DNA of 64,000 nt from a bacterium (lineage in GTDB: Bacteria; Patescibacteriota; Minisyncoccia; Phycocordibacterales; UBA2100): contig JAEUQT010000001.1 in the NCBI GenBank assembly GCA_016789445.1, positions 195,603 to 259,602 of the forward strand. Reading direction: 5' to 3'. Below, in pieces: positions 24,860 to 62,708 of this stretch. Numbering within the stretch: position 1 is the first letter of the stretch; each line of letters starts with the position of its first letter. The translations under genes were made by a program, and so were the position numbers. Below the pieces are notes generated by a model that was not told the DNA's origin, did not search any database, and saw nothing but the letters and a program-made list of their open reading frames with translations.

Positions 24860-25219
24860 CTACATCATCTTCACGTCGATGGAGACGCCGGATGGAAGGT
24901 CGATGTTGGTGAGCGCCTCGATGACCTTCGCCTCAGGGTTCACGATGTCGATCATGCGCTTGTGGACGCGCATCTCAAACTGTTCACGGGAATCCTTGTC
25001 GATGAACGCCGAGCGGTTCACGGTGTACTTCTTGATGTCGATCGGGAGCGGGACTGGGCCGATGACGGTTGCGTTGTAGCGGGAAGCAGTATCGATGATC
25101 TGCTTGACGGAACGATCCAAGACCGCGTGCTCATAGGCACGTACTTTGATGCGGAGGCGGCTTCCGCCGTCCCCCTTCTTCGCGCTCTTCGCGCGCTTAG
25201 CTGTCTTGGTCGCTGTCAT
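24860..25219 (-). CDS. rpsJ: 30S ribosomal protein S10 (short basic N-terminal extension)
   Basis: Start at internal MTATKTAKRAKSAKKGDGGSRLRIKVRAYEHAVLDRSVKQIIDTASRYNATVIGPVPLP ... EMRVHKRMIDIV. Confidence 0.9.
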   Translation of the reverse strand: MTATKTAKRAKSAKKGDGGSRLRIKVRAYEHAVLDRSVKQIIDTASRYNATVIGPVPLPIDIKKYTVNRSAFIDKDSREQFEMRVHKRMIDIVNPEAKVIEALTNIDLPSGVSIDVKMM

Positions 25220-25230
25220 AGAACTTCGCG

Positions 25231-25259
25231 AGTATGCCCTACCCGAGGGAAAAACGCAA
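25231..25259 (-). promoter_or_regulatory. sigma70-like promoter for rpsJ (TTGCGT-17-CATACT)
   Basis: Minus strand reads TTGCGT, then a 17-nt spacer, then CATACT, about 12 nt upstream of the rpsJ ATG. This is a short-leader or near-leaderless arrangement. Confidence 0.4.
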
Positions 25260-25350
25260 GTTCTAGGCCACATTGACAGGGGTGCCCCTTCCCCTATTTG
25301 CTGCTTGCCCGATCGATCCAGCGCATGGTAGGTTCTTCGCAGGAGGCAAC

Positions 25351-25701
25351 ATGAGGCAACCTGATATCGCGCTTGCGGCTTATCTGCTCGACTTCATGCG
25401 TGGCACTTGGCTGGACTATTCATGGTCTCGCGAAGCGCGGCGATTCCTTCCGAGCCTCTTGCTCGGCGTGTACGTCTGGCACCGGCGCGGCAAATACCCG
25501 ACGATGCGTGACGCTGCAGCATTCATGCATGCGGATCCGGCGAGCAGCGGACCGAAGTACATCCGTCAAGCAGCAGACGCCGGTCTCATACGGGTCGAGA
25601 ATCATCCGCGAGACAAACGGAAGTACATCCTCTTTCCGACAGAGAAGCTGATGCATCTCATGGATAAGGAGCTCACGAAGATCGGAACCGTCGCGCAGTA
25701 A
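25351..25701 (+). CDS. MarR-like winged-helix transcription regulator (hypothetical)
   Basis: PTMRDAAAFMHADPASSGPKYIRQAADAGLIRVENHPRDKRKYILFPTEKL matches the MarR wHTH recognition-helix/wing pattern. Start taken at MRQPDIA. Confidence 0.5.
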   Translation: MRQPDIALAAYLLDFMRGTWLDYSWSREARRFLPSLLLGVYVWHRRGKYPTMRDAAAFMHADPASSGPKYIRQAADAGLIRVENHPRDKRKYILFPTEKLMHLMDKELTKIGTVAQ

Positions 25702-25812
25702 TGCGCGGCGGTTTTCTATTTGAAAAGTGACTTATACCCACCCAAGAGTCCTGCCAGCCATTGGTCATGTAGCGACAGAAAAGATGCAGCGCGATGGCGC
25801 AACGGAAACACA

Positions 25813-26391
25813 CTACCGCACCGCGGATTCGATCGTGTCTTTCACCTTCTCGACGAGCGAGCCTTCTTCATGCATGTCGTTGGCTTCGTCGTTGATGCCG
25901 CTCTCTGCAAGCGTCGTCAGCTTGTCGTTGGCCGCGCTTTCCTCATCGAGCGTCTCTTGGAGGAGATCGACGACTTCCCTATGCCCCATCTCTTCCGCCC
26001 ACGCTTTCGCCGAGCCGTACCCGGCCATCTCGTAGTGTTCGATGTACTGCGCTGCGGCGATGAGCGAGGCATCACGCGCTTCGGCATCTTTGATGTTGGC
26101 GATGCACCATGCGGCGTCTTCGATGAGACCATCGATGGCGGCGGATTTCTCCATCATCTTGCCGGTTGCACCGAGCATCCCGAGCGCTTGTGCGAGGCGA
26201 TCCTTCTGTACGCGCGTCTCATCGAGATGCGTCGTGAACGCCTGCTTCAGCTGCGTATCCGATGCAGCCTTCGCCATCTTCGGCAGCGCTTTCATGAGTT
26301 CACTCTCGGTGTAGTGCAATGCTTTGAGCTTCAGGATGAGGAGATCGTGGAGGGTCGAATAGTTGGACTGCTTTTTCTTGGTGGTTGCCAT
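25813..26391 (-). CDS. ferritin-like YciE/YciF (DUF892) family protein
   Basis: 192 aa; LHDLLILKLKALHYTESELMKALPKMAKAASDTQLKQAFTTHLDETRVQKDRL ... IEHYEMAGYGSAKAWAEEMG is typical of the YciE-type ferritin-like fold. Confidence 0.65.
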   Translation of the reverse strand: MATTKKKQSNYSTLHDLLILKLKALHYTESELMKALPKMAKAASDTQLKQAFTTHLDETRVQKDRLAQALGMLGATGKMMEKSAAIDGLIEDAAWCIANIKDAEARDASLIAAAQYIEHYEMAGYGSAKAWAEEMGHREVVDLLQETLDEESAANDKLTTLAESGINDEANDMHEEGSLVEKVKDTIESAVR

Positions 26392-26487
26392 ATGCGTATT
26401 TCGAATATGAGTAATACGCCAGTTGTATAGGCCGGCTATGAACCCGAAGTGAAAGAGCCCGCGGCGCGTGAGCGCTGCGGGCGATGG

Positions 26488-26913
26488 TCAGTCACGAAAC
26501 GGCGAGCCGCCACGTGGTGGCTTCGGAGGAGGCGCTTTCGAGTACTCGTCGAAATACTGCCCCCACATCGATCTCGGGAGATTTATTCGCGCACTCCCGC
26601 CCGGAGCAGGAACGAACGCAGTTACGGTGCATCGCGCCTGCACATCGGAACGATTATTGATCTTCCGGTAGCTGGCTGTCGCAGCCTTCATGGCTTTTTC
26701 GAGCGAGGGCCGCGATCGTATCGTGACCTCCTTTTCGTCGGACCAACCGTCATGGAGATGTACCGAGAAACGTACTCGCTCGGTATTTCGACGCATCCGC
26801 AGATGACGTAACGACGACTTCGTCTCGCGCAGCTTCTGTGCGTAGAACTTCACATGCTTCGCGAGCTCACTCTCGAGGAACGTATACATGTCCATGCAGA
26901 CCTCCAATTTCAA
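26488..26913 (-). CDS. hypothetical basic protein
   Basis: 141-aa ORF, Arg/Lys-rich. No recognised motif. Followed by a weak hairpin at ~26400-26450. Confidence 0.3.
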   Translation of the reverse strand: MKLEVCMDMYTFLESELAKHVKFYAQKLRETKSSLRHLRMRRNTERVRFSVHLHDGWSDEKEVTIRSRPSLEKAMKAATASYRKINNRSDVQARCTVTAFVPAPGGSARINLPRSMWGQYFDEYSKAPPPKPPRGGSPFRD

Positions 26914-26986
26914 ACTGGCCAGACAATAGCAGAACCCCTCCCCCTATGCTAGGGTGCCCGCGGGAATGTTCAGAAAGGAGCAATTG

Positions 26987-27721
26987 ATGGAACGCATCAT
27001 TGATACCGAAGTCGAAAGGAACATGGAGTTCCTCAGGACGAACTCCTATCCCGGACGCGGATTCATCATGGGCCGATCGCCTGACGGTGACTCTATCGTC
27101 CAGGTGTACTGGCTGATGGGCCGCAGCGACAACAGTCGTAATCGGCAACTGGTGCAGGAAGATCATCTCGTGAAGACGGCGCCGATCGATCCTAAGAAAG
27201 TCAAAGACCCTTCGCTCATCATCTACAACGCGATGCGCGAGGAAGACGATCGATACGTCGTCTCGAACGGCAAGCAGACCGACACCATCTTCAACGCCGA
27301 GAAGCACCTCGGCAGCGGTTTCCGCGAAGCGATGTTCGAGTGGCAATACGAACCGGATGAACCGAATTACACTCCCCGCATCACGGCGATGTATGACCGG
27401 TTCGCCGGCGGCAGACGGCCCGCATTCCAGATCGCAATACTCTCGCGCTCGCTCTTGGGAGAGTGCGTCCGTACGTACTACGAGTACGAAGTCATGCGAC
27501 GCGGATACGGGTATTGCGTCCATACGTACGACGGAGACGGCGATCCGTTGCCGTCGTTCTCGCAGCATCCGTACCTGATGCGTATCAAGAGCCGCATGCC
27601 AGCACGGATCGCCCTGCAGATCTGGCAGGCGCTTGATCCCGACAATCGCATCGCGATTGCGGCGAAGGTAATCAATCAGGAAACAGGCAAATCCCTGACG
27701 CATATCATCAACCAGTACTGA
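26987..27721 (+). CDS. purO: IMP cyclohydrolase, archaeal PurO type
   Basis: GRGFIMGRSPDGDSIVQVYWLMGRS ... IIYNAMREEDDRYVVSNGKQTD ... YTPRITAMYD matches the PurO family. AAGGAG lies 8 nt upstream of the MERIID start. Confidence 0.6.
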   Translation: MERIIDTEVERNMEFLRTNSYPGRGFIMGRSPDGDSIVQVYWLMGRSDNSRNRQLVQEDHLVKTAPIDPKKVKDPSLIIYNAMREEDDRYVVSNGKQTDTIFNAEKHLGSGFREAMFEWQYEPDEPNYTPRITAMYDRFAGGRRPAFQIAILSRSLLGECVRTYYEYEVMRRGYGYCVHTYDGDGDPLPSFSQHPYLMRIKSRMPARIALQIWQALDPDNRIAIAAKVINQETGKSLTHIINQY

Positions 27722-27725
27722 CGAA

Positions 27726-27758
27726 GGCCCTGCCATTTTGGCAGGGCCTTTTACTTTT
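27726..27758 (+). terminator. intrinsic terminator after purO
   Basis: GGCCCUGCC-AUUUU-GGCAGGGCC followed by UUUUACUUUUCU. Confidence 0.6.
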
Positions 27759-27767
27759 CTTACTTCC

Positions 27768-28574
27768 CTATTTCAAGTACTTATCGAGGAACGCGACGGA
27801 TTTCTGCCATGCGTCAGCGGTTTCTTTCGGTGCATGATTCGGATTCGACGGATTCGCGAACGCGTGACCGACGCCCGGATACATATAGATCTCGTTCTCG
27901 ACGCCGAGAGTATTCAAAGAATCCTCGAACGCTTTCACGGTCGTCGTAGGAATCGCCTGGTCGGCATCACCGAAGACGCCCATGACCGGCCACTTGATGG
28001 GAGAGAGCTGTTCGGTGGTCGTCGGGATGCCGGAGCCGTAATACACAATCGTTGCATCAAGCTTTTCGCCTGAGATGGCGAGATTCACCGACTGCCTGCC
28101 ACCGAAGCACCAGCCCCACGAGGCGATCTTCGTAGCACCGTTATCGCGGAGGTATTTCACTGCGGCGCGGAGATTCGCGGTTCCCTCTTCCTGATTGAAC
28201 TGCGACGAATACGCACGCGCTTCCTCCTGTGTCTCGAGCACATTACCTTTGTAGAGATCCACAGCGAGCACCATGTATCCCTCCTTCGCGAGATCCTCTG
28301 CCGTCTTCTTTATCTCCGGTCTGAGTCCGCGGTTCTCGTGGATGAGGACGACTCCCGGATAGGTGCGATCGTCTGCAGGACGCGCGAAGTAGCCGGTCGC
28401 ATTCCCGAAGTATGCGACGTCTCCGGCCGTGATCTCTGTGCTGTCAGAATTATTGTTCATAGTTTGCGAGCCATTCGAGTAATACCAGTAACCTCCCCCG
28501 AGTGCAATGAGCGCCACGAGCGCAAAAAGGTACTTCAACATATGCCGTAACAATACATCATGAACCGCACGCAT
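27768..28574 (-). CDS. dienelactone hydrolase family protein with N-terminal membrane anchor
   Basis: YPGVVLIHENRGL ... GYMVLAVDLYKG ... KIASWGWCFGG ... GVGHAFANP follows the DLH catalytic-triad layout. The N-terminal LFALVALIALGGGYWYY is hydrophobic. Confidence 0.75.
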   Translation of the reverse strand: MRAVHDVLLRHMLKYLFALVALIALGGGYWYYSNGSQTMNNNSDSTEITAGDVAYFGNATGYFARPADDRTYPGVVLIHENRGLRPEIKKTAEDLAKEGYMVLAVDLYKGNVLETQEEARAYSSQFNQEEGTANLRAAVKYLRDNGATKIASWGWCFGGRQSVNLAISGEKLDATIVYYGSGIPTTTEQLSPIKWPVMGVFGDADQAIPTTTVKAFEDSLNTLGVENEIYMYPGVGHAFANPSNPNHAPKETADAWQKSVAFLDKYLK

Positions 28575-28595
28575 GAAGATTGGGAGAATGGCGCA

Positions 28596-28630
28596 CGAAA
28601 AAATCCGCCTCTCGGCGGATTTTTTCGTGC
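28596..28630. terminator. bidirectional intrinsic terminator after tuf
   Basis: AAAAAAUCCGCC-UCUC-GGCGGAUUUUUU, a palindromic A/T-flanked GC stem. Confidence 0.7.
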
Positions 28631-28645
28631 TGAATCCTAGAGGGA

Positions 28646-29845
<1,200 letters not shown>

Positions 29846-29961
29846 ATGGAATTGAATAATTACCTGCTAAATAATTTGCCAACGCGTTAGAGTGCTCCGG
29901 TATTTTCTTCGCTTTTCCCCTCCCTGCTTATATGCGGGTCGCTACGCCGCACAGAAAGAAT

Positions 29962-29992
29962 AGGCAAAGAAATACGCACAGAGCGTGCGTGC
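29962..29992 (-). terminator. weak terminator-like hairpin after Gly-rich protein operon (or 5'-proximal hairpin of tuf leader)
   Basis: Minus strand reads ACGCAC-GCUCU-GUGCGU AUUUCUUUGCC. It is preceded by TGgTAGTAT, an extended -10-like element, so the role is ambiguous. Confidence 0.4.
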
Positions 29993-30060
29993 CTGCATAC
30001 TACCAAAACTCCCATGGAGCGCAAGTGAATAACCGCCCATTTCAGCCTGTATTTGAGCCC

Positions 30061-31041
30061 TTAATTGCTGACAGAGCCCTTCACGCGCGAAGAGGTGTTC
30101 CCGCCGAGCCAGGTGAGGGCGCGATTATTCATGTCGATCGCCTTGCCAGCGGCCCCGCCGTTCGCTCCTGGATGGCTCCCTCCGCTACCGGTCCCACCTT
30201 TCGTGCCGGACGCACCGAAAGCCCCTCCGTCGCCACCCATACCATAGATACCCTTCTCACCTCCAGCGCCGCCGCCAGACGTCGTCCCCGAAGCCCCCTT
30301 CACACCAGCACTTGTGTTCTGCGAAGAACCGCCCGCGCCACCCGCCGAGCTTGATGGCCCGGATGCCCCGCCACCGCCACCATTACCTCCCGTTGAAGCG
30401 CCTTTTCCGTACGATGCCCCACCCCCACCGCCTCCACCCCCACCGCCGTAGATATATCCGCTCGAATTATTGATGCTGAGCGGATACGACATGGAAATCG
30501 CCGGACCTCCTGCCGCACCTGCCTGTGGGCTCGGCGGATTCGATGAATTAGCATCGCTACCATCGCCGCCCTTGCCGCCTTTGCCATAGATACGCCCTTT
30601 ATTTATGACCGTCAGTGTGGTGCCCGTCGGCCAGCAGCTACCCGTCACCAGTGCGGCATTCGACGTGTTCGTCGAATAAACATCGACCCCTGACTCGATG
30701 ACGAAGATGTAGTCCCCGGGAGCAGTCGGATTGCCGGCGAGCGTGCACAGATTCACATTCGACCTGTCTGCAGTGATCGTAACCGTCGTCGCACACGAAC
30801 CTGCCGTCACGCCCGCAGGAGGGTTTGTATAGAAAGACTCCCATTCAAGGGCGCTCTCGGTCGGCACATAGACACTCGCGCCCGTCGCACTGTTGTTCGT
30901 GACGTCGCGGCACACGGTATGCGCCGTGATATCCAAGCTCGCTGCATTGTTGACCGTGTAGTTATCCGACGCGTCGATGACGATCGCGAAGAGGGAGAGG
31001 ACGACGATTGAAGTGAGGGCTGCCGACAGCCTGTTGTGCAT
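30061..31041 (-). CDS. secreted glycine-rich protein, paralog 2
   Basis: Signal/anchor then conserved ~90-aa domain (DASDNYTVN ... ITAHTVCRDVTN.SATGASVYVPT ... EWESFYTNPPAGVTAGSC) shared with 31043..31888. Long poly-Gly/GS tracts (GGGGGGGGGG). Confidence 0.5.
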   Translation of the reverse strand: MHNRLSAALTSIVVLSLFAIVIDASDNYTVNNAASLDITAHTVCRDVTNNSATGASVYVPTESALEWESFYTNPPAGVTAGSCATTVTITADRSNVNLCTLAGNPTAPGDYIFVIESGVDVYSTNTSNAALVTGSCWPTGTTLTVINKGRIYGKGGKGGDGSDANSSNPPSPQAGAAGGPAISMSYPLSINNSSGYIYGGGGGGGGGGASYGKGASTGGNGGGGGASGPSSSAGGAGGSSQNTSAGVKGASGTTSGGGAGGEKGIYGMGGDGGAFGASGTKGGTGSGGSHPGANGGAAGKAIDMNNRALTWLGGNTSSRVKGSVSN

Positions 31042-31042
31042 A

Positions 31043-31888
31043 TTAGTTCCACGTCACGATGACGCGACCCGCGCCCCCGCGGCCGCCGTCCTGTGCAGTG
31101 CCATTTCCCCCTGCTCCTGCTGCCCCAACTACAATGGTGACCGAACTACCCGGCGTATAGGTGCCTGAGGTATAAGTACGTGTCGAATACGAACCGCCGC
31201 CGCCGCCTGAGGCAGGAATAAACACGCCAGTCTTCATCGTATAGAGCGCAGCTCCTCCCCCTCCACCACCTGGTGCACTTCCAGGATTACCCGGGCCTGG
31301 ATCCGAGCTCGGGAGTGCAGCCCCACCAGCACCGCCGTTGGCGCCATTACCCCCCTTTCCTGCGGTGGTGCCTGCTGCGCCAGAGGTATTCGTTGTTCCG
31401 CCAGAAGCAGTGCCGCCCGCACCTCCTGCTGATACAGTTGCGCGAGCACCGCCTCCCGCAATCACTGCTGAAGCCCAGCTCGATGTTCCGCCATTGCTTC
31501 CACCCGCGATATTCGCTGCTCCATCTTTGCCACCGCCGCCACCGCCGCCACCCCACACCTGCACCGTGATGGAATTATGCTCGGGAACCGTAAAGGAGTA
31601 TGTGCCCGCAGTGCTAAAGGTCTGGGATCCGGGTGTTACGCACCCGGATGCCGTTACGCCTGCGGGAGGATTGGTATAAAACGACTGCCACTCGGCGTCT
31701 GTCTGTGTCGGAACATACACACTCGCCCCCGTCGCGCTTGCATTTGTTACCTTCCGGCACTCGGTATGTGCAGTGATGCTCTGATTGGTACCGTAATTCA
31801 CGGTGTAGTTGTCGGAGGCGTCGATGGCGATTGCGAAGAGCGAGAGCATCGCCACGATCGTGAGGCCTGCTTGAAGGTGCCCACGCAT
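31043..31888 (-). CDS. secreted glycine-rich protein, paralog 1
   Basis: Same N-terminal conserved domain as 30061..31041. G/A/T/S-rich remainder ending GRVIVTWN. Confidence 0.5.
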   Translation of the reverse strand: MRGHLQAGLTIVAMLSLFAIAIDASDNYTVNYGTNQSITAHTECRKVTNASATGASVYVPTQTDAEWQSFYTNPPAGVTASGCVTPGSQTFSTAGTYSFTVPEHNSITVQVWGGGGGGGGKDGAANIAGGSNGGTSSWASAVIAGGGARATVSAGGAGGTASGGTTNTSGAAGTTAGKGGNGANGGAGGAALPSSDPGPGNPGSAPGGGGGGAALYTMKTGVFIPASGGGGGSYSTRTYTSGTYTPGSSVTIVVGAAGAGGNGTAQDGGRGGAGRVIVTWN

Positions 31889-31892
31889 ACGC

Positions 31893-32579
31893 CTATCGCG
31901 CCGCCTTCAACGCCTCGATTTCCGCCTTAAGACCGTCAATCTCAGACTGCTGCTCCTTCACCGCCTCGATGAGCGGCGCGATGAGCGCGTCGTAATCAAC
32001 CGACTTGATGCCATCGCCATCCGTGATGACCGCTTCGGGCAATACCTTCTCGACATCCTGCGCGATCACACCGGCGGACGCCTTGCCGCTTTCCTTCCAT
32101 GTGAAGAGGACGCCGCTCAGCTTCTTGACGATATCGAGTCCCTTGATCGGGCGGACATCCTTCTTGAGACTTGCATCCGAGGTGTGGAAGTATCCTGCAG
32201 CATAGACATTCCCGCCGAGATAGGTCCCACCTGCATACTCGCCGTTGTAGTTCAGATAGATGCGGTCGGTGGAGATGACGCCGAGCAACGCCAGGTTGCG
32301 CGCATCGCCGCTGGCAGTCGTGCTCCCTCCTTGCACCCACACATCGTACGATGCATTCATCTGTTGCATGATCGCACCATAGTTTGTGAGCGTGCTCACT
32401 GAGAGCGCACCGTTCTTCACCTGCGCCGTCGCACTCGTATTGATGGGGGCGGCAACGTTGCTGTTCGGCGCCGTACCGGTCGGTCCTGTCCACGCGTACG
32501 CAACAACAGTACCGAAAAGAACGAGCGCGACTGCCGAAGCAGTGAGGTGGCTGGCGGTGAGAGTTGCGATACGGGTCAT
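31893..32579 (-). CDS. membrane-anchored protein with C-terminal peptidase-S74 / intramolecular chaperone (tail-fibre-type) domain
   Basis: SDASLKKDVRPIKGLDIVKKLSGVLFTWKESGKASAGVIAQDVEKVLPEAVITDGDGIKSVDYDALIAPLIEAVKEQQSEIDGLKAEIEALK matches the endosialidase-chaperone domain (SDRRLK ... GV.Y.W ... GVIAQEV ... ). N-terminal TM. Confidence 0.65.
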   Translation of the reverse strand: MTRIATLTASHLTASAVALVLFGTVVAYAWTGPTGTAPNSNVAAPINTSATAQVKNGALSVSTLTNYGAIMQQMNASYDVWVQGGSTTASGDARNLALLGVISTDRIYLNYNGEYAGGTYLGGNVYAAGYFHTSDASLKKDVRPIKGLDIVKKLSGVLFTWKESGKASAGVIAQDVEKVLPEAVITDGDGIKSVDYDALIAPLIEAVKEQQSEIDGLKAEIEALKAAR

Positions 32580-32614
32580 ACGTGATGGTTATGTATAAAA
32601 ATAATAAATAACGA

Positions 32615-33586
32615 TTAGAGTTCCTTCCACGATGGATTCGAGAAGACGGTCGCTCTCTGGGTGAGCGTGCCTCCCGGTCCGGTGCACGAAAGCGTGTACG
32701 TGACGCTGCCGCGGATGGCACCGGTCACACAACCGTTTCCTGAGTGTGTGCACGAAACTGCTGCTGAAGAGGTGGCATTCCAGGTGTTATTGAAATCAGG
32801 ACTGTTCTCAGTAACTGAGCACGACGTGGCATCGCGGACACTCCAGAGGACAACAACGGTGCCTCCCGGACGCACGAGGCGTGGCTCGATGGAAAGCTCA
32901 TCTCCTGGCGCCGTACTTGGTGCCGGAGGGGTGACACATGCACCCGAGCTGCATATCAGTGATCCTCCACACGCAACCGGCACCGCGCCCTGGCATGCCG
33001 TCCGGCGCGTCGTTGAACTGACACAGCTGTACTGTGTCGAGCACTGTGGATTCCACGTCGTTTGTACCGGCGTCGTGCCGGCACCGAAACTGAGCCAGCC
33101 GATATTCATATCTCCCCAGGCATAGCCGGTAAACGTATCCCCCGCCTGATTCAGCGTCGGTCCATAGTTCGTACCACTCAAACTGATGAATCCGTCCCAT
33201 CCCCCGCTCTGGGAATCAGAATATGCGAGCGCGCGAAGCCATCCCTTGAGTGCGTACTCATCCATGCGCGCCGTACATGGCGCCGTCGGGCATCCGGTGA
33301 GATTCGCGCTCTGCGCGCTGATCCAGCCGATATTCTCACTCCAGGCATAACCGCTGATGGCACCGTCTGCCGCGATCGAAAGACCGTAGTTGCTCGTGCC
33401 GCAGGTACCGAGATTCGAACAGTTGAGACTGATCCAGCCGATCGTGTCGCTCCAGGCGTAGCCTGTGAGCGGCGATGCGGCTTGCGAGAGCGTCGGCTCA
33501 GGCGCGATGAAAAAAGAGACCGCAATCGTAGCTACGACTGCAATCGCTAGGATGTACTTCTCCCCTTGCGCGGCGAGATATCGCAT
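32615..33586 (-). CDS. secreted Cys-rich protein with GYAWS-x-N/T-IGWIS repeats
   Basis: N-terminal TM/signal. Three repeats (GYAWSDTIGWISLNCSN / GYAWSENIGWISAQSAN / GYAWGDMNIGWLSFG). C-terminal half has ~16 Cys. Confidence 0.5.
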   Translation of the reverse strand: MRYLAAQGEKYILAIAVVATIAVSFFIAPEPTLSQAASPLTGYAWSDTIGWISLNCSNLGTCGTSNYGLSIAADGAISGYAWSENIGWISAQSANLTGCPTAPCTARMDEYALKGWLRALAYSDSQSGGWDGFISLSGTNYGPTLNQAGDTFTGYAWGDMNIGWLSFGAGTTPVQTTWNPQCSTQYSCVSSTTRRTACQGAVPVACGGSLICSSGACVTPPAPSTAPGDELSIEPRLVRPGGTVVVLWSVRDATSCSVTENSPDFNNTWNATSSAAVSCTHSGNGCVTGAIRGSVTYTLSCTGPGGTLTQRATVFSNPSWKEL

Positions 33587-33589
33587 ATA

Positions 33590-33853
33590 TTACTGCTGGC
33601 TCAGAGCCTCGAGGACGCGGAGCTTCTCTTCTTCGGATATTTCATCCGGCTCGTCCGATGCACTGAGCTCATTGAGAATGCGCGCCTTTTCTTCCACGGG
33701 CACATCGGAAAAGACTTGATTGGCGAGACGCTCACGCTCATCCTGCACCGTAGGCTGCATGAGCGTTATGACCAACGCCAAGACACCGACCGTTGCAAAG
33801 AGAACGCCGATAGCAAGAATGCGTCGTGCATTCTTATCAGAGCCGATTTCCAT
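33590..33853 (-). CDS. small membrane protein (hypothetical), first gene of surface-protein operon
   Basis: Start at MEIGSDKNARRILAIGVLFATVGVLALVITL (one TM), acidic C-terminus. Stop is 3 nt from the next gene. TATTAT lies ~7 nt upstream of the ATG, suggesting a leaderless transcript. Confidence 0.4.
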   Translation of the reverse strand: MEIGSDKNARRILAIGVLFATVGVLALVITLMQPTVQDERERLANQVFSDVPVEEKARILNELSASDEPDEISEEEKLRVLEALSQQ

Positions 33854-33954
33854 CTGGCAATAATACCGCGCTTCTGCGCACACCTTATGAAGACTGGGGA
33901 TTACTAATCTCTTTCATGAACTGACGTCGCGCGACTTCGTATATAATCCGAGCG

Positions 33955-35403
33955 ATGAAGCGCGGACACTCCTTCGACATGCAGGGCCTTAAGTTCGCGG
34001 GCAAGTTCCTCATCACGCTCGCGTTTGTATTCACGGCGGTACACTATGGGACCGCCATCGCTTCGGATCGTCTCGTTGCCGTTGATGAAAGCGGAACGAC
34101 AGCAGCGGAAGCAGAGCTTAAATATCTCCAAGAGCGCCGTCAGAACCAGCCACAAGACGAGAAAGAGATGCTTGAGAAGCTTCAGAAGTATGAAGACACC
34201 CTCTCAACACGCACCATCGGCACAGCCTCAATCGACACCATCGCCCAAGCGCACGAACGCATGATCGCCGCGGATCTCACGAACATGAAGCTCTACCTCT
34301 TCGAGAACGGTCATGCGACCGCAACACTAGATATCCTTTCTAAAGGAAAGCGCGGCTCCCGCTGGGAGACGCCGACCGGCCTCTACAAGATAGAGAGCAA
34401 GGAAAAAGACCACTTCTCGTCGATCGGCGAGGTGCACATGCCCTACTCGATGCAGTTCTTCGGCAATTTCTTCGTCCACGGCTGGCCGTACTACCCGGGT
34501 GGCGAGCCGGTACCCGAAGGCTACTCCGGTGGCTGCATCCGTCTCTCGACGGAGGATGCGGAAAAGGTCTTCGAATTCGTGAAGCGCGGGACTCCGATTT
34601 TCGTATGGGAAGACGGAGCGGCCTCAACCACAGAAATGACACTCTCGAAGGCGCCGGTCCCTCGCGTAAACGCGAAAGCATTCATCGTGGCGGATCTTCA
34701 TACGGGAGATGTATATGCGGAAAAGAATGCCGAGATAGCCTACCCTATCGCATCGGTGTCGAAGCTTCTTACGGCGCTCGTCGCCAACGAGACCATCCAC
34801 TTCGATCGCACGCTTACCGTCAACGGTGACGACCGCGCGCAAACTGATGGCACACCAGGCTCTATCGTGAAGGGAGATACTTTTACCGTGGGCGAGCTGC
34901 TCTATCCCCTTCTCATGGAATCGAACAACTCCGCCGCCTACACGCTCGCGCGCTACAACGGTCAGGAGAATTTCGTCGGCTGGATGAATGACAAAGCGAA
35001 AGCGATCGGCATGGACAAGACGCACATGAAAGACCCGTCGGGCATCTCTCCCGAGAACGTCTCCACCGCAAGCGATCTTTTTAAACTGATGCGCTATATC
35101 GAGGACAGCCAATCCTTCATCCTCAATCTCTCGCGCGAACCGGAGAAGAAACTCAAGGCGGAGAACGGTCGCACGTATACCTTCGCCAACTTCAATCACT
35201 TCGCCGGCAATAAGGACTTCTTGGGCGGTAAAGTCGGCTATACCAACGAAGCCCGCCAGACGATGACCGCCGTCTTCGAAGTACCGGTGCGCGGTGCGAC
35301 CAGCACCATCGCGATCGTCATCCTCGGCTCCGAAGAGCGTAAGAACGACGTCGAGAAGCTGCTCAGCTGGTTCAAACGCAACGCCACACCGCTTACCATC
35401 TAA
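33955..35403 (+). CDS. fused L,D-transpeptidase (YkuD) + serine D,D-carboxypeptidase (peptidase S11/PBP5-like)
   Basis: LDT motif HGWPYYPGG ... GYSGGCIRLSTEDAEKVFEFV. S11 motifs ASVSKLLTA (SxxK), MESNNSAAYTLA (SxN), GGKVGYTNEA (KTG-like). N-terminal TM. TATATAAT lies 7 nt upstream of the ATG. Confidence 0.75.
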   Translation: MKRGHSFDMQGLKFAGKFLITLAFVFTAVHYGTAIASDRLVAVDESGTTAAEAELKYLQERRQNQPQDEKEMLEKLQKYEDTLSTRTIGTASIDTIAQAHERMIAADLTNMKLYLFENGHATATLDILSKGKRGSRWETPTGLYKIESKEKDHFSSIGEVHMPYSMQFFGNFFVHGWPYYPGGEPVPEGYSGGCIRLSTEDAEKVFEFVKRGTPIFVWEDGAASTTEMTLSKAPVPRVNAKAFIVADLHTGDVYAEKNAEIAYPIASVSKLLTALVANETIHFDRTLTVNGDDRAQTDGTPGSIVKGDTFTVGELLYPLLMESNNSAAYTLARYNGQENFVGWMNDKAKAIGMDKTHMKDPSGISPENVSTASDLFKLMRYIEDSQSFILNLSREPEKKLKAENGRTYTFANFNHFAGNKDFLGGKVGYTNEARQTMTAVFEVPVRGATSTIAIVILGSEERKNDVEKLLSWFKRNATPLTI

Positions 35404-35404
35404 T

Positions 35405-35436
35405 GAAAAACCCCGCTTGAAAGCGGGGTTTTTCAT
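35405..35436. terminator. bidirectional intrinsic terminator between LDT/S11 gene and fusA
   Basis: AAAAACCCCGCUU-GAA-AGCGGGGUUUUUC. Confidence 0.75.
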
Positions 35437-35450
35437 TCTGCATCCAGAGA

Positions 35451-37592
35451 TTACTGACGGGATGCGATGACTTCGTCAGCAACGTTGCGCGGGACGACGG
35501 CGTAGTGCGAGAACTCAAGGTTCGGGACCGCACGACCTTCCGTAAGAGAGCGGAGCTGCGTGGTATAGCCGAAGAGTTCCGAAAGCGGGACCTTTGCGAC
35601 GACAACGCGTGCCTGACCGCGCTCACCCATCGATTCGATGAGACCGCGCTTCGCGTTGATGGAGCCGGTGACGTCACCGAGGAATTTCTCCGGAGTAACG
35701 ACTTCGAGCTTCATGACCGGCTCGAGGAGGACCGGCTTCGCCTGCTTCATAGCGTCCTGGAACGCATTGAGCGCTGCGAGCTTGAAGGCGATTTCCGAGG
35801 AGTCGACATCGTGCGCGGAACCGTCGTACAGGTCGACCGAGATATCGACGACCGGGAATCCGGCGAGAACGCCGCGATCCATGGCTTCCTTGAGGCCCTT
35901 CCTGATCGGCGAGATGAATTCCGCCGGGATGACGCCTCCCTTGATATTGTTGATGAATTCGAAGTGGTCTTCGCGATCGACGTTGTTCTTGAGCTTCTCG
36001 CCTTCGACGAGCGGCTCGAGCGGCTTGATCTTGATCTTCACGTGACCGTACTGACCACGACCACCCGTCTGCTTGATGTGCTTGTATTCGACATCGGCGG
36101 TGCCTTGGATGGTCTCGCGGAATGCGACCTGCGGCTTGCCGGTCGTCGCTTCGACGCCGAACTCGCGCTTCATACGGTCGACGAGAATCTCGAGGTGAAG
36201 TTCACCCATGCCGGAGATGATGGTCTCCCCTGTTTCCTCGTCAGACTTAACGCGGAACGTCGGGTCTTCGTCAGAAAGACGGGAGAGCGCGATACCAAGC
36301 TTCTCCTGGTCGGCCTTCGTCTTCGGTTCGACGCGCATGGAGATGACCGGCGTCGGGAAGACGATGCTTTCAAGTGCGATCGGATGTGCCTGATCACAGA
36401 CCGTGTTACCGATCTTCACTTCCTTCATGCCGACGAACGCGGCGATCTCACCTGCGTACACGACTTCGACTTCCTCGCGCTTATCTGCCTGGAGGCGGAC
36501 GATACGTCCGACGCGCTCCTTCTTGTTGTTCGCCGAGTTATAGACAGTGTCTCCTGCCTTCACCGAGCCTGAGTAGACGCGGAAGAAGGTAAGCGCACCG
36601 ACGAATGGGTCGACCTGGAGCTTGAAGACGAGCGCCGCGAACGGACCTTCGTCGCTCGCAGGACGTGTCTCTTCTGCGCCGGTGTCGGTGTTGATACCGG
36701 TTGCTGCCGGAAGATCGAGCGGTGATGGGAGGTAGTCGACGACCGCATCAAGGACGAGCTGCACGCCCTTGTTCTTGAGAGAAGAGCCGGTGAGGACCGG
36801 GAAGATCTCGTTGGCGATGACGCCCTTGCGGAGGTTCGCCTTCAAGACATCAAGCGGAATCTCCTTCCCTTCGAGGTAGTCGTTCATGAGCTTTTCGTCG
36901 TTCTCGACGATGCGCTCGACGAGCTCGCCATGGAACTTCTTCGCATCATCCATGAGCTCAGCCGGGATGTCGTAGGCGATGACTTCCTTACCCATCTCGC
37001 CTTCGAACTTATATGCCTTCATCGAAAGAAGATCGACGACGCCGTTGAAATCGCCCTCTGCGCCGATCGGGATCTGGAGGCGGACCGCCTTCTTGGAGAG
37101 ACGGTCAAGGATGGATGCGTACGACTTCTCGAACGAAGCACCCGTACGATCGAGCTTGTTGATGTAGCAGACACGCGGCACTTCCGCTTCTTCAGCGTAG
37201 CGCCAGTTGGTCTCGGACTGCGGCTCGACGCCGGCGACGCCGTCGAAGACGACGACTGCGCCGTCAAGGACGCGCATGGAGCGCTTCACCTCTGAGGTGA
37301 AGTCGATGTGGCCCGGGGTATCGATGACGTTGAAGCGGACCTTCGCGGAGGTGTCGGTTCCCATGTAGGTCGGGTTCCAGAAGCAGGTGATCGCCGCCGC
37401 GGTGATGGTGATGCCGCGCTCGCGCTCCTGTTCCATCCAGTCGGTCACCGTCGCGCCGTCGTGCACTTCACCGATCTTGTGGCTCATGCCGGTGTAGAAC
37501 AGGATGCGCTCCGACGTGGTCGTTTTTCCGGCGTCGACGTGCGCCACGATCCCGAAATTTCGTACTTTCTCCAACGGATAGTCTCGACTCAT
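35451..37592 (-). CDS. fusA: elongation factor G
   Basis: 713 aa; [24 protein letters not shown] ... [12 protein letters not shown]; canonical EF-G. Confidence 0.98.
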
Positions 37593-37859
37593 ATGATTTT
37601 AATAACGTGTAATTAACTACGTGTGGCGCACGGCGGTGGAAAGGGGTCGGGAAAACTCTAGTTTTCCCGTGTCGGAGAGCAGGGCGGCGAGCGAAGCGTT
37701 GCCGTCCGTTGAGAACCGAGGGTTCTCAAGGAGCGGCTCTGCCGCGACGACGTGTGCGACGATTCCGACCCGTCCTTTCCAGCAGTCTTCATTAAAAAGA
37801 AAACCGCCAAAGGCGTCCCCACAATGTACGGGAAATCGAGGGAAATGCAAGAAATTCCT

Positions 37860-38528
37860 TCACCATTCGATCTCTGTATCCCCCCTCTTTTTCAGGTATT
37901 CATTCGTCTTTGAGAACGGCTTCGAGCCGAAAAAACCATTGTGTGCCGAGAACGGCGACGGGTGCGCACTCTCGATGACGAAATGCTTCGAGCGGTCAAT
38001 GAAACTCCCCTTCTGCCGCGCGTAATTCCCCCACAATATGAAGACAATCCCCTCTCGCTCATCGTTCAGTTTCCGTATCGCCGCGTCGGTAAATTGCTCC
38101 CACCCCTTACCTTGGTGCGAACCCGCACTCGCGGCGCGCACCGTGAGTGTTGCATTGAGGAGGAGCACTCCCTGCTTCGCCCAGCGCGAAAGATCGGTGT
38201 CATGCGAGACCTCGTGCCCGAGATCACTCTCGATCTCTTTGAAAATGTTCTGCAGCGAAGGCGGCGGACGCACGCCGGGATTCACGGCGAAGCAGAGCCC
38301 GTTCGCCTGCCCTGCTCCGTGATACGGGTCTTGTCCGAGGATGACGACCTTCACCTCACTAAAAGGCGTCAGATCGAACGCGCGGAAGATATCCTTGGGT
38401 GCCGGATACACCGTGCTTTTCGCATATTCTGCATGCACAAAATCGGTGAGCCCCCCGAAGTAGGGCTCACCGAATTCGCTCTCCAATTTTTCTTTCCATC
38501 CGCCACCGATCTTCACCTCTCGTGTCAT
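37860..38528 (-). CDS. ung: uracil-DNA glycosylase (family 1)
   Basis: Start at internal MTREVKIGGGWKEKL. Motifs GQDPYHGAGQANGLCFAV, LLLNATLTVRAASAGSH, HPSPFSAHNGFFGSKPFSKTN. Confidence 0.85.
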   Translation of the reverse strand: MTREVKIGGGWKEKLESEFGEPYFGGLTDFVHAEYAKSTVYPAPKDIFRAFDLTPFSEVKVVILGQDPYHGAGQANGLCFAVNPGVRPPPSLQNIFKEIESDLGHEVSHDTDLSRWAKQGVLLLNATLTVRAASAGSHQGKGWEQFTDAAIRKLNDEREGIVFILWGNYARQKGSFIDRSKHFVIESAHPSPFSAHNGFFGSKPFSKTNEYLKKRGDTEIEW

Positions 38529-38677
38529 TCTTGTATGGTACGGCGAAGGCGGGCGAATGACTATCCTCCGATGACACCGAGAAGCCAGAGCACGATGATA
38601 AGACTGACCGGGACTCCGAGGAGCCATAAAATGATAGGCATGTACGCATCGTATCGACCCTGCATGAAGCGCACGTG

Positions 38678-38710
38678 ATAAAGAAAAATCCCGTCTTTCG
38701 GCGGGATTTC
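38678..38710 (-). terminator. intrinsic terminator directly after rpsG
   Basis: Minus strand reads AAAUCCCGCC-GAAA-GACGGGAUUU followed by UUCUUUAUC. It separates rpsL-rpsG from ung-fusA. Confidence 0.6.
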
Positions 38711-38728
38711 TCGTTTGGTTTCTTGGAA

Positions 38729-39190
38729 CTACCACGCGAAGTGCGCGAATGCCTTGTTGGCTTCTGCCATGCGGTGCGTCGTCTCCTTCTTGGTGACGGC
38801 TGCACCTTCACCCTTCGCAGCTGCCTTGATCTCATTGAGGAGGGACTCTGCCATCGGCTTACCCTTGGTGCTTTCAGCTGCATCCACCATCCAGCGGAGG
38901 CCGAGGGCGAGGCGGCGCTCAGGACGAACCTCACGCGGAACCTGGTAGTTTGCACCACCGACGCGGCGGGAGCGGACTTCCACCGACGGAGCTGCATTCT
39001 CGAGCGCCTGCTCGAAGATCGCAACCGGATCGCCGTCCTTCTTCAACTCCTCGAAGACGGTGTAGACGATCTTGCGCGCGGTGTCCTTCTTGCCGCGCTC
39101 CATGACGTAGTTGATGAGCTTGTGCACCTTGACCGATCCGTAGATCTCGTCCGGAGCTGGCATGTTTCGATTCTTAACAGGGCGTCGCAT
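38729..39190 (-). CDS. rpsG: 30S ribosomal protein S7
   Basis: 153 aa; LINYVMERGKKDTARKIVYTVFEELKKDG ... VEVRSRRVGGANYQVP. Confidence 0.95.
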   Translation of the reverse strand: MRRPVKNRNMPAPDEIYGSVKVHKLINYVMERGKKDTARKIVYTVFEELKKDGDPVAIFEQALENAAPSVEVRSRRVGGANYQVPREVRPERRLALGLRWMVDAAESTKGKPMAESLLNEIKAAAKGEGAAVTKKETTHRMAEANKAFAHFAW

Positions 39191-39198
39191 ATGAGTGA

Positions 39199-39615
39199 TT
39201 ACTTAGCTGCCTTAGGCTTCTTAGCACCGTAGAGGGAGCGGCCGCGGCGGCGCTTCTCGATACCTGCGGTGTCGAGCTTGCCGCGCACGATCGTGTAGCG
39301 AAGACCGATGTCCTTCACGCGACCACCACGGACGAGGACGACCGAGTGCTCCTGGAGGTTATGGCCTTCACCCGGGATGTACGCGGTGATCTCCATGCCG
39401 TTCGAGAGGCGGACACGGGCGATCTTACGGATAGCCGAGTTCGGCTTACGAGGGGTCTTGGTGGTTACCTTGGTGCAGACACCACGCTTGAATGGCGAGT
39501 TGAAATAGGTTGGGCGATTTTCGAGTGTATTGAAACCACGACCAAGTGCGCCGGTCTTGGACTTGTAGACGCGCTTGCCGCGTCCCTTACGTACGAGCTG
39601 ATTGATGGTAGACAT
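39199..39615 (-). CDS. rpsL: 30S ribosomal protein S12
   Basis: 138 aa; [12 protein letters not shown] ... [58 protein letters not shown]. Confidence 0.95.
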
Positions 39616-43539: not shown

Positions 43540-43573
43540 CGGCGGGATCTCAGGATCCCGCCGTTTTCTTTTT
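43540..43573 (+). terminator. intrinsic terminator
   Basis: CGGCGGGAUC-UCAG-GAUCCCGCCG UUUUCUUUUU; overlaps the last codons of the convergent comEC gene. Confidence 0.7.
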
Positions 43574-45013
43574 GTATACCACCCCGAGCGTAGCGTAGAT
43601 AAGGCAAAGCAGCCACGCTCCGAACGCTGGCAACTGCACGCTCGATAGCGGCAGCGTCGCGAATGCTTCCGCGACATAGATCACATAGGAGAGGAGGACA
43701 TATGCCGGAAATCCGAAGAACGGGGCGACGATACCGGTGAAAAGCCCGAAGAGAGCGGCGATGGCACTGAGAAGCATCGCCCACGGGATTACGATGAGCG
43801 CCAGAAGGTTTGCCGGCAAAGAATAGAGGCTGAGCATTCCATTCTGATAGAGGAGGAGCGGTACGACGGCGAGCTGCGTACCGATCGAGGCAGCAGCGAT
43901 TTCGCGCAGCCCGAATCTCTCCGTGATTGGGACGAGATACGGTTCGATAACCGGCGTCAGGAATATGAGACCGGCCGTCGCGATGATTGAAAGCTGGAAT
44001 CCCGGATCAAATACGAGCACATACGGATTCCAGATGATCATTGCCGTCGCCACCAGCGCGAGCGCACGCGACGCGAGATACGTCCTTCCTGTCGCTTTCC
44101 CTGTTATCGCGATCACCGCCATTGCTGCGGCACGCGTCGATGCCGAGGCGAATCCGGTGATGGCTGCAAAGAAGAACGCGACGAATCCCGCAAACCCGAG
44201 TCGCAACGCTTGCGGAGTACGCACCATCCAGCGCAACAACGCATCGACGACCACCATGATGTTGTATCCGCTGAGGACCACGATGTGCGTGAGGCCCACG
44301 ATGCGGAATGTGTCAGATAATTCTTCACCAAGCCCGCGTTTATCCCCCACCGTGATGCCGCCGGCCAGTCCCGCCTGTGGTTCGTTGAGCGCATTCGCCA
44401 ATCCATCGAGATACTTCTCTTTGGCACGGATCGCCCACGATTTGAGGAAGAATCCCTCGTTCTCACCAAGGAGCGTCACTTTCGCGAATGACATTTGGTA
44501 CAGAATCCGGTCTTTTGCGAGAAAGCCCGGATACTCGAACACCCTACCCTCACCGGTCTCGAATGCTTCCGGCAATTCGAGCTTCGCTTCCGCACGCACG
44601 ACATCGCCGTACGCAACTTCGGTATGGAGCGGTGCGACAACCAAAACCGCGACGCTATCGACCGTACTACTTGCCACCATCCGCACGCGCACCGGAATGC
44701 GTACATTGTTCTCGCGCGCATCAGGCTCGTCCTGCACTATCCCTTCGATCACCACCTTCTCCCCCACCACCGCATCGAGCTGCGGCTCACGTTCAACGAT
44801 ACCCGTGTGCATACGCGCTGCGCCGAAAGCAAAAGCTGAAAGCGCCACGCAGGTGAAAAGAAATGGAGCAGTATGCTCACGCCAATACGCAACCGCCGCG
44901 ACAAGCGCGGCAAAGAGGAGGAAAAGAATCGTAAACCATCCGAACATCACAAACGTCCGCACGAAGACACCGAGTACGAAAAAGACGAGTACGAGCCAGA
45001 AGCGGATCGCCAT
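43550..45013 (-). CDS. comEC: ComEC/Rec2 DNA-uptake channel, membrane (competence) domain
   Basis: ~487 aa polytopic. N-terminal DUF4131-like region and a competence domain (LGEELSDTFRIVGLTHIVVLSGYNIMVV ... ASTRAAAMAVIAI ... ). Start taken at internal MAIRFWL. Confidence 0.75.
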   Translation of the reverse strand: MAIRFWLVLVFFVLGVFVRTFVMFGWFTILFLLFAALVAAVAYWREHTAPFLFTCVALSAFAFGAARMHTGIVEREPQLDAVVGEKVVIEGIVQDEPDARENNVRIPVRVRMVASSTVDSVAVLVVAPLHTEVAYGDVVRAEAKLELPEAFETGEGRVFEYPGFLAKDRILYQMSFAKVTLLGENEGFFLKSWAIRAKEKYLDGLANALNEPQAGLAGGITVGDKRGLGEELSDTFRIVGLTHIVVLSGYNIMVVVDALLRWMVRTPQALRLGFAGFVAFFFAAITGFASASTRAAAMAVIAITGKATGRTYLASRALALVATAMIIWNPYVLVFDPGFQLSIIATAGLIFLTPVIEPYLVPITERFGLREIAAASIGTQLAVVPLLLYQNGMLSLYSLPANLLALIVIPWAMLLSAIAALFGLFTGIVAPFFGFPAYVLLSYVIYVAEAFATLPLSSVQLPAFGAWLLCLIYATLGVVYKKKTAGS

Positions 45014-45305
45014 CCACTGTAGCGTAGCAAAAGGGTGGCGGCCTCGATGAGAGGCCGCCGGTAGTATGTGGTTATCCGAGCGAGACGCGCGGAACAGGAT
45101 GCGAAGCGCTTTCAGGTCGCTGCGATCCGGCGCGGCCCGTAGGAGCCGGAGCCGAATGCCTTCCTGATTGCACGCCACCTTCGAGCGCTTGCAACTTATC
45201 TTGCATAGTTGCCATGGAACTTCTCCTTGCATGCATCATCCCGCATCAGAGACCCATCGGCGGGATGACAAGAAGATATATGACAGGCCTGCTTGTACTT
45301 TAAAC

Positions 45306-49711: not shown

Positions 49712-50128
49712 ATGAAGACCGACCCGAACTGCATTTTCTGCAAGATCGTCGCAGGGGAACTCCCGAAATTCAAAGTATACGAGGATGAAAATACGCTTTC
49801 ATTCCTCACGATCGAGCCGATGAGCAAGGGTCACACGCTCGTCATCCCGAAAGAGCATGTACCGAACGTCTTCGAAACATCTCCCGACACATGGTCCTTG
49901 GCGCAGGAAACCGTACGCAAGGTCGCTCACGCGGTAGAAAAAGCCATGCAGGCCGATGGCGTAAACATCAACATGAACAATCGCGAGCACGCTGGTCAGG
50001 TCGTCGACCACTTCCACATCCACATAATCCCCCGTTACAAGGGCGACGACCTCCAACACTGGCCCACACGAAAAATCGCCGCCGGTGAAGGCGACGAGAT
50101 TTCCACGAAGATTTCTTCTACTCTCTAG
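49712..50128 (+). CDS. HIT family (histidine triad) hydrolase
   Basis: CIFCKIVAGELP ... DHFHIHIIPR (HxHxHxx). TTGTACTATAG, a -10-like element, ends 7 nt upstream of the ATG (likely leaderless). Divergent from recJ. Confidence 0.8.
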   Translation: MKTDPNCIFCKIVAGELPKFKVYEDENTLSFLTIEPMSKGHTLVIPKEHVPNVFETSPDTWSLAQETVRKVAHAVEKAMQADGVNINMNNREHAGQVVDHFHIHIIPRYKGDDLQHWPTRKIAAGEGDEISTKISSTL

Positions 50129-53660: not shown

Positions 53661-53683
53661 AAAAATTTCGCTACGTGTAATGA

Positions 53684-60315: not shown

Positions 60316-60316
60316 A

Positions 60317-60895: not shown

Positions 60896-60896
60896 A

Positions 60897-62660: not shown

Positions 62661-62708
62661 ACTATTGTAACGCGATGTCGTGTAACTTCGCCCGAGTATT
62701 CAACAAAC

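Follow-up and report, generated by a model that had tools for sequence, protein, structure and literature searches.

Much of bacterial diversity belongs to the Patescibacteria, whose cultivated members, to our knowledge, all live attached to other microbes. Among the described surface fibres, BclA of Bacillus is a collagen-like trimeric filament whose N-terminal targeting motif is docked on the basal protein ExsFA/BxpB, and in the endosialidase endoNF the S74 intramolecular chaperone carries a catalytic Ser911/Lys916 dyad, within an S-D-x-x-x-K motif at the start of the domain. The phage adhesin gp38 combines Gly-rich motifs and hypervariable segments with a three-helix attachment domain whose helices each bear a conserved Trp and by which it docks on the gp37 trimer (PMC6851490). 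As for Patescibacteria themselves, PMC11623550 names type IV pili as the sole attachment devices studied so far, and our literature searches found no paper on Patescibacteria with S74 or tail-fibre domains, on the motifs of the locus treated here, or on patescibacterial surface adhesins. This locus lies on a 64,000-nt stretch of a contig from an ultrasmall patescibacterium of the Paceibacteria/Parcubacteria type (JAEUQT010000001.1 of assembly GCA_016789445.1; the whole stretch is hereafter referred to as “the window”) and consists of five co-oriented genes, g1 to g5, between fusA and tuf, which, as we consider probable, encode a Sec-exported set of trimeric fibres and adhesins for attachment, possibly acting together with type IV pili, with g1, g2 and the fibre gene g3 as the core triad and the Gly-rich g4 and g5 as swappable heads.

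A preliminary description of the region had reported a minus-strand set of five genes and a divergent L,D-transpeptidase (LDT)/carboxypeptidase gene between fusA and tuf, and all of these open reading frames (ORFs) are present as described (Table 1), although the interval, then given as 5.4 kb, measures ~5.6 kb. The gaps from g1 through to g5 are just 3, 35, 4 and 1 nt, g1 being called as an 87-aa protein on public contigs, and an N-terminal hydrophobic segment (mean Kyte–Doolittle value of 2.25–2.81 over 15 residues) was found in all five of the encoded proteins, in agreement with the signal or anchor segments claimed for them; such tight packing, the export-type N-termini and the fibre/adhesin domains detailed below bear out the notion of a co-oriented surface-protein set. 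The LDT/DD-carboxypeptidase gene, divergent from g1 and 101 nt away from the g1 start, also sits beside g1 in the closest relatives (L012, L013, L019, L028 and L093), and a promoter scan returned nothing useful in the intergenic region between the two.

The preliminary description missed that it is g1, g2 and the N-terminal part of g3 which are conserved, that the Gly-rich genes make up the variable, exchangeable end of the locus, and that the core is associated with type IV pilus operons in other lineages. Relatives of g2 numbered 573 in species-representative genomes, and the best 80 loci, nearly all of them labelled Patescibacteria, were taken and supplemented with three loci from look-ups to give a non-redundant set of 83. 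A g1-family gene, as recognized by a hidden Markov model (HMM) built from 30 ORFs upstream of g2, precedes g2 in 51 of these 83 loci, while a same-strand neighbour with a g3-type N-terminus stands beside 66 of the 100 g2 ORFs that they contain, at least one such gene being present in 61 loci and up to eight occurring in tandem. The triad of g1, g2 and a fibre gene is conserved across the lineage, and its fibre members match only the first ~70 residues of g3, that is, a leader made up of a basic stretch, ~18 uncharged residues and a small residue, after which the motif WTGPTxxPPxGNVxAPxNVGxxxQxKxGGL follows. In 82 of 83 cases A, S or G directly precedes the invariant Trp, which is itself present in 81 of 84, a pattern that can be read as a signal-peptidase-I site directly before the Trp (Trp30 in g3). 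A phmmer search with residues 1–118 of g3 retrieved 1334 cluster representatives, and the WTGPT motif is common to about 100 proteins beside g2 homologs. Pfam domains detected on 102 leader proteins include S74 (16), Gly_rich_2 (7), Collagen (5), Shufflon_N (3), Hint (2) and several Ig-like ones, with C1q, Fibrinogen_C, GP38 and Dockerin found on single proteins, a repertoire that, judging from these matches, seems to be that of trimeric fibres with adhesin heads. The same modules also occur on differing N-terminal carriers (L007, 8888–10060; L047, 8452–9570; P0033): one WTGPT leader, here too encoded between fusA and tuf, bears a Hint/Vint autoprocessing domain, another directly bears a GP38 domain, and a further GP38 domain is joined to a prepilin N_methyl segment (P0033).

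Neither g1 and g2 nor the WTGPT N-terminus belong to any family in Pfam, NCBIfam or PHROG, g1 likewise has no PADLOC family, and PADLOC returned none at E ≤ 0.01 for any of g1–g5, on which account a defence-system identity of the locus was ruled out. The g1 protein has an N-terminal transmembrane helix and then three helical xEEKxxILxxLS repeats, the last of them at the C-terminus, which ends in a conserved EEKLxxLxxL (33590–33625). In g2, a signal/anchor helix is followed by Trp-rich GYAWS..IGWIS repeats and a linker rich in Cys, the C-terminal domain is Ig-like, and the protein closes with PxWxE; the GYAWS-repeat Cys-rich protein announced by the preliminary description can be recognized in its three clear (three to four) GYAWS...IGW(I/L)S repeats and 14 Cys. 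Its homologs number more than 1271 and are ~300 aa long, almost none of them having a Pfam domain and those that are named being almost all patescibacterial; counted as clusters of 90% identity, the family exceeds 1,200. Trp, Gly and eight Cys make up the invariant columns of the alignment, a pattern more in line with a structural or binding protein outside the cell than with an enzyme. In its AlphaFold2 model (pLDDT 83), g2 starts with a helix, continues in beta-hairpin repeats and finishes with the Ig-like domain; no match below 1e-3 was returned for this model from the PDB and BFVD, the weak ones fitting the Ig-like part only. The C-terminus of g2 (32615–32635) ends in PxWxE(L/I/R), with P318 and E322 invariant, and terminal motifs like those of g1 and g2 often mediate protein–protein docking. 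Two ORFs beside g2 in other loci (L065, 11293–12252; L069, 11576–12781) match both the WTGPT-leader and the g2 models, which suggests family fusions.

The g3 protein, the smallest fibre of the leader family, opens with a signal/anchor segment and the conserved “WTGPT” N-terminus, from which a short stalk leads to the S74 intramolecular chaperone at the C-terminus, with its trailing coiled-coil-like helix. The S74 similarity, for which a failed HMM search had been named as a possible refutation, holds: Pfam PF13884 (Peptidase_S74) matches residues 134–184 with 56.9 bits (gathering score 22; E = 2.6e-15), residues ~115–226, up to the C-terminus, are matched by dozens of PHROG tail-fibre families (best 6e-36), and the best PDB sequence match is gp37 of phage S16, the distal long-tail-fibre subunit (6F45_A, 2.6e-7). 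The Ser–Lys site is conserved as well, fhtSDaslKKD of g3 being aligned with nvsSDrriKKD of S16 gp37 and the motif also with that of 8JOV, and an SDxxLK motif is kept in 13 other S74-bearing neighbours of g2. By analogy with endosialidase, Ser134 would be the expected cleavage nucleophile and Lys139 the expected base, and the chaperone, if released at Ser134, would comprise 95 residues.

The tandem paralogy of g4 and g5 and their shared Cys-containing N-domain are likewise evident, as the N-termini are 68% identical over 85 residues, and in both proteins a signal peptide precedes the N-domain. The C-terminal Gly-rich domain of g4 matches Pfam PF21722 (Gly_rich_2; E = 4.6e-7) with 30.5 bits, the gathering score being 24.3; this match is split into two stretches, and the stronger one covers just profile positions 23–88 of 226. 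In turn, g5 matches PF05268 (GP38; E = 2.4e-8, 34.5 bits against 25) with profile positions 5–207 of 218 on residues 88–311. Compared with the PDB by sequence, g5 gave low-complexity noise only, whereas its AlphaFold2 model (mean pLDDT 90.8, pTM 0.82, from a 39-sequence alignment) has only gp38 proteins as significant fold matches, those of phages PP01 (9V85, 3e-10) and S16 (6F45_D, 3e-8), with TM scores of 0.63–0.66 when normalised to the target. Invariant Gly columns and motifs alternate with variable segments across the g5 family. According to the same model, residues 25–87 fold into a small domain that is mostly beta and contains two cysteines, and upstream of the beta-helix there are just one 9-residue and one 4-residue helix. 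As g5 has no gp38 attachment domain, a literal gp37–gp38 type of docking of g5 on g3 is unsupported and was downgraded as a candidate arrangement; the shared N-domain might take over the docking role or bind another conserved partner. Going by its model, g5 has a gp38 fold but is not a phage-type tail-fibre tip protein. Elsewhere the N-domain is fused to RCC1, LVIVD, Kelch and small Cys-rich modules and is therefore a carrier for interchangeable binding domains.

How this end of the locus varies can be seen from public contigs with an identical g3, which show two structures. In L002 and L003, stemming from two independent samples, the DNA is 98.6–99.7% identical to the window down to position 30860 and the match resumes at 30007, the flanks of this cassette being 96–99.7% identical and the stretch between them unmatched: 853 bp of the window are replaced there by 2,424 bp, which hold another g5 allele with an in-frame TAG, a gene for an N-domain joined to a Kelch propeller, and a 107-aa N-domain fragment. 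The TAG (6574–6576 of L002, and also in L003) is the single one in the frame and stands where the paralogs have CAG/GAG (Gln/Glu), the rest of the 326 codons being intact, and may represent a recent nonsense mutation. Between the window and L001, g3 and g4 are 99.8–100% identical and g5 96.4%, its differences clustering in residues 21–54 of the N-domain as a gene-conversion-like patch, and a sister genome has an N-domain plus LVIVD propeller protein in the position of g4. The breakpoints show binding heads being swapped from strain to strain, probably through recombination within the sequence that codes for the N-domain.

The placement of the locus recurs as well, g2 being found between fusA and tuf in 13 other loci from species-level genomes, with one of the two flanks visible in 9 more; it is these loci that resemble the window most closely, and the partner of g2 in them may be an S74 fibre or, e.g., a Hint-domain protein with a g3-type N-terminus. 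Clustering of the neighbours in the 83 loci revealed few other recurrent ones, namely NusA (17), PilB-type ATPases (14), PilC (12) and ORFs with prepilin motifs (10). In ~9 loci, nusA on the opposite strand is followed by g1, g2, zero to two fibre genes, pilB, pilC and a pilin gene on one strand, with gaps of 20–300 nt. Depending on the lineage, the triad thus stands beside one or another of the highly expressed housekeeping genes, and one group of lineages has it at the start of a type IV pilus operon. In the genome of the window the corresponding order is nusA, a 75-aa ORF, pilB ... pilC and pilin-like genes; the triad is absent from this nusA–pilB junction, and the 75-aa ORF, tested as a g1 relic, is not one. 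Between the fibre locus and the pilus genes of the window there are, on the minus strand, a ComEC-type competence channel gene (43550–45232) and recJ (48002–49687).

Put together, the C-terminal S74 domain would drive the trimerisation of g3, which would then cut itself at Ser134 by means of the Ser134/Lys139 dyad and leave a trimeric stub of roughly 104 residues; signal peptidase would expose the N-terminal Trp of the leader proteins, and g1, as a bitopic membrane protein, would form with g2 an envelope base that holds the conserved fibre N-termini, g2 being the hypothetical docking partner of the peptide WTGPTGTAPNSNVAAPINTSATAQVKNGAL. On their common 60-residue N-domain, g4 (Gly_rich_2) and g5 (gp38-type) would act as binding heads, and the system would mediate attachment to a host cell or surface, working alongside, or on, type IV pili, a coupling suggested by the position of the triad, in other lineages, at the start of a pilB–pilC–pilin operon. 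An LPXTG-type motif with a hydrophobic segment and a basic tail is absent from the C-termini of g2–g5 (...NPSWKEL, ...EALKAAR, ...VIVTWN and ...VKGSVSN, respectively), by which sortase substrates were ruled out. More tentatively, one might go further and see in g1, g2 and the WTGPT leaders an undescribed Patescibacteria-specific appendage, pilus-coupled and deciding which host cells these obligate epibionts recognise, whose base captures the free WTGPT N-termini; its fibre heads would have been recruited from phage receptor-binding proteins and be swapped between strains, and placement in the str operon or next to nusA would secure high constitutive expression.

Several points weigh against the attachment reading. 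The base role of g1 and g2 is drawn entirely from gene neighbourhood, and pilus linkage is seen in lineages other than that of the window. Cleavage before Trp30 is predicted from residue statistics, and the residue at −3 is atypical (F or N) in ~20% of the leader family; moreover, a fibre built from a mature g3 stub of ~104 residues would be very short. The g5 model lacks the three-helix, Trp-tipped attachment domain, which limits the gp38 analogy, and an N-domain plus RCC1 protein occurs elsewhere as a solo gene.

Table 1. Features of the fibre locus and of its surroundings in the window (coordinates of the window; strand given where assigned).
Feature	Position	Strand	Remarks
g1	33590–33853	−	small membrane protein, 87 aa from ATG; 97 aa from an upstream GTG
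g2	32615–33586	−	exported, 323 aa
g3	31893–32579	−	minimal fibre protein, 228 aa
g3, conserved WTGPT motif	32400–32492	−	residues 30–60; follows signal-peptidase-I-like site VAYA↓W
g3, S74 chaperone domain	31896–32180	−	residues 134–228
g3, putative autocleavage/catalytic motif	32163–32180	−	S134-D-A-S-L-K139; aligned to SDrriK (S16 gp37) and SDerlK (8JOV)
g4	31043–31888	−	281 aa
g4, shared N-domain	31634–31816	−	about residues 25–85
g5	30061–31041	−	326 aa
g5, shared N-domain	30787–30969	−	
g5, gp38-like beta-helix and polyglycine-II sandwich	30064–30780	−	residues 88–326
Strain-variable cassette	30007–30860	−	from codon ~60 of g5 (inside the N-domain) to 54 nt past the g5 stop
Terminator-like hairpin, then T-rich tract	29974–29990	−	3' of g5, 5' of tuf; by pattern scan only
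LDT + S11 D,D-carboxypeptidase fusion	33955–35403	+	482 aa; Pfam YkuD 1e-16, Peptidase_S11 2e-35
fusA	35451–37592	−	ORF; flank of the fusA–tuf interval
tuf	28646–29845	−	ORF; other flank of the fusA–tuf interval
UDG-family gene	37860–38735		between rpsG and fusA
Dienelactone hydrolase gene	27768–28574		in the ~3.4 kb between tuf and rpsJ
IMP-cyclohydrolase-like gene	26954–27721	+	between tuf and rpsJ
DUF892 gene	25813–26391		between tuf and rpsJ, with two ORFs without Pfam match
rpsJ	24860–25273		
pilC	62709–63926	−	then three ORFs, one with a prepilin-like G↓MTLVE start (58852–63926); pilB and nusA beyond the window end (L094)

Were the locus a phage-derived island, be it a prophage remnant or a group of fibre genes of the tailocin type, that had entered the str operon only recently, it would be easy to see why S74, GP38 and Gly_rich_2 are mostly phage tail-fibre domains, why g3 and g5 correspond to both partners of the S16 gp37–gp38 tip in the PDB, and why the adhesin end varies between strains; nevertheless, such an origin is very improbable and can be considered largely refuted. 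The fusA–tuf interval contains only g1–g5 and the LDT/DD-carboxypeptidase gene, with no phage replication, packaging or capsid gene among them, and scans of the window found neither a tRNA gene nor an Rfam match. GC content is 0.57–0.62 over the locus against 0.55–0.60 in the flanks, and it is highest (0.62) over g4 and g5 because of their 22–24% glycine, i.e., the shift is a Gly-codon effect only. No relative of g2 was found in 50,697 GenBank phage records or in IMG/VR, and g5 had no close tblastn match in the phage records. The g1–g2–g3 core occupies the same position in at least 13 other, divergent species-level genomes, at 31–56% g2 identity to the window. The word “inserted” used in the preliminary description does not survive this comparison, and its “possibly phage-derived” stands for the domains (S74, the gp38 fold and Gly_rich_2 are shared with phages) but not for the locus as a whole; on conserved position, composition, gene content and the absence of g2 from phage collections, a prophage island was rejected, and the locus would rather be an old chromosomal module that shares only single domains with phages. 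The same GC-rich, Gly-codon-rich stretch also has long ORFs on its opposite strand, which might raise the suspicion that g4 and g5 are themselves untranslated chance ORFs, a concern about the Gly-rich ORFs that had been voiced beforehand. The probability of this is negligible, as both have Pfam matches above the gathering thresholds and dozens of full-length homologs with conserved Gly motifs and termini, including ones on independent contigs at ~50–60% identity, the g5 model is confident and has a specific fold match, and gene spacing is operon-like; at the level of comparative evidence the suspicion is refuted, and homology and modelling alike indicate that all five genes are real and not artefacts.

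A more serious contender, even if an unlikely one, holds that the triad is physically part of the type IV pilus, with g1 and g2 as accessory or tip-complex proteins and the WTGPT fibres, along with the g4/g5 heads, displayed at the pilus tip like the PilY1/PilC or R64 PilV adhesins and not on the cell body. The position of g1, g2 and fibre genes directly 5' of pilB–pilC–pilin in the ~9 loci described above argues for it, and so do the three fibre proteins that match Shufflon_N, which is the PilV constant region, and the gp38-domain homolog fused to a prepilin N_methyl segment; pilB, moreover, is within a few kb of the triad in 14 of the 83 loci, but the other 69 have no pilB within the flanks covered, and in the genome of the window the triad lies ~27 kb or more from pilB–pilC. 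Neither does the class III prepilin motif G↓(F/M)-T-L-x-E occur in g1–g5, as far as can be judged by reading, nor was a Pfam N_methyl match found, the prepilin-like motifs of a regular-expression scan being confined to ORFs downstream of pilC; a pilin identity of g3–g5 was ruled out by this absence, and the adjacency to pilus genes may reflect only the co-regulation of surface structures. That g3–g5 are secreted effectors such as bacteriocins or lysins, directed by phage receptor-binding modules at cells of a host or competitor so as to kill them or feed on them, is more improbable still: all three are exported, and the conserved N-terminal parts with swappable C-terminal modules, the pseudogene fragments and the cassette replacement do resemble polymorphic toxin loci, but neither a toxin, lysin or immunity domain nor a small immunity-like gene after each variant was found, and the recognisable C-terminal modules are all binding folds (gp38, Gly_rich_2, Kelch, RCC1, LVIVD, collagen, C1q, Ig). 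The probable reading is, in our opinion, still that of exported fibres with exchangeable binding heads.

Adhesins built from phage-fibre modules and variation of adhesin cassettes are already known, but the triad itself is undescribed, and, consisting of two Pfam-less families (g1 and g2) and more than 1,300 leader-type representatives, it offers a second, widespread candidate for attachment in Patescibacteria. Its fibres carry interchangeable phage-type binding heads, from which the hypothesis arises that hosts are recognised by cassette-swapped adhesins, and the locus shows that modules by which phages bind receptors, namely the S74 chaperone and the polyglycine sandwich of gp38, have become part of stable cellular surface proteins. 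A non-ribosomal module kept between fusA and tuf is hereby documented, too; the str/S10 region (24860–39615) is, for that matter, interrupted throughout. Elsewhere in the window, three tandem minus-strand genes (50125–55042; 642, 539 and 452 aa) each encode PG_binding_1, two of them with PKD and one with a Kazal-like domain in addition, and appear from their domains to be another paralogous family of exported wall-associated proteins.

Of the described systems, the fibre tip of T2/S16-type phages (gp37 and gp38; 6F45, 9V85) is matched here by an S74/SDxxxK fibre gene two genes upstream of a gp38-fold gene, and g5, like S16 and PP01 gp38, has a beta-helix and a polyglycine-II sandwich with conserved Gly motifs and variable loops; the differences are the conserved chromosomal position without a virion context, the Sec-type N-termini of g3 and g5, a g3 stalk of only ~104 residues, the Gly_rich_2 paralog g4 sitting between g3 and g5, and the beta-rich, two-Cys N-domain that replaces the gp38 attachment domain. 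With the endosialidase tailspikes, the L-shaped fibre of phage T5 and MYRF, g3 shares a C-terminal S74 domain with the Ser...Lys motif, whereas its passenger is neither a tailspike nor a transcription factor but a short stub that is exported and starts with a lineage-specific N-terminus; autocleavage and trimerisation of g3 are predicted. A conserved N-terminal part with variable C-terminal binding modules is likewise found in the R64 PilV shufflon, PilY1/PilC and the modular pilins of Streptococcus sanguinis; the likeness to pilus tip adhesins extends to the triad adjoining pilB–pilC–pilin in other lineages and to Shufflon_N in three family members, but g3–g5 have no prepilin peptidase motif, the triad lies apart from the pilus genes in the genome of the window, and, as opposed to the PilV shufflon, there is no site-specific recombinase here and homologous cassette replacement takes the place of inversion. 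Lastly, although there is no sequence relationship to BclA on ExsFA/BxpB and WTGPT docking on g2 is only hypothetical, the likeness in architecture would encompass a short conserved N-terminal motif exposed by proteolysis, a trimeric stalk and a variable globular head, and the leader family even includes proteins with collagen repeats and with C1q or fibrinogen heads.

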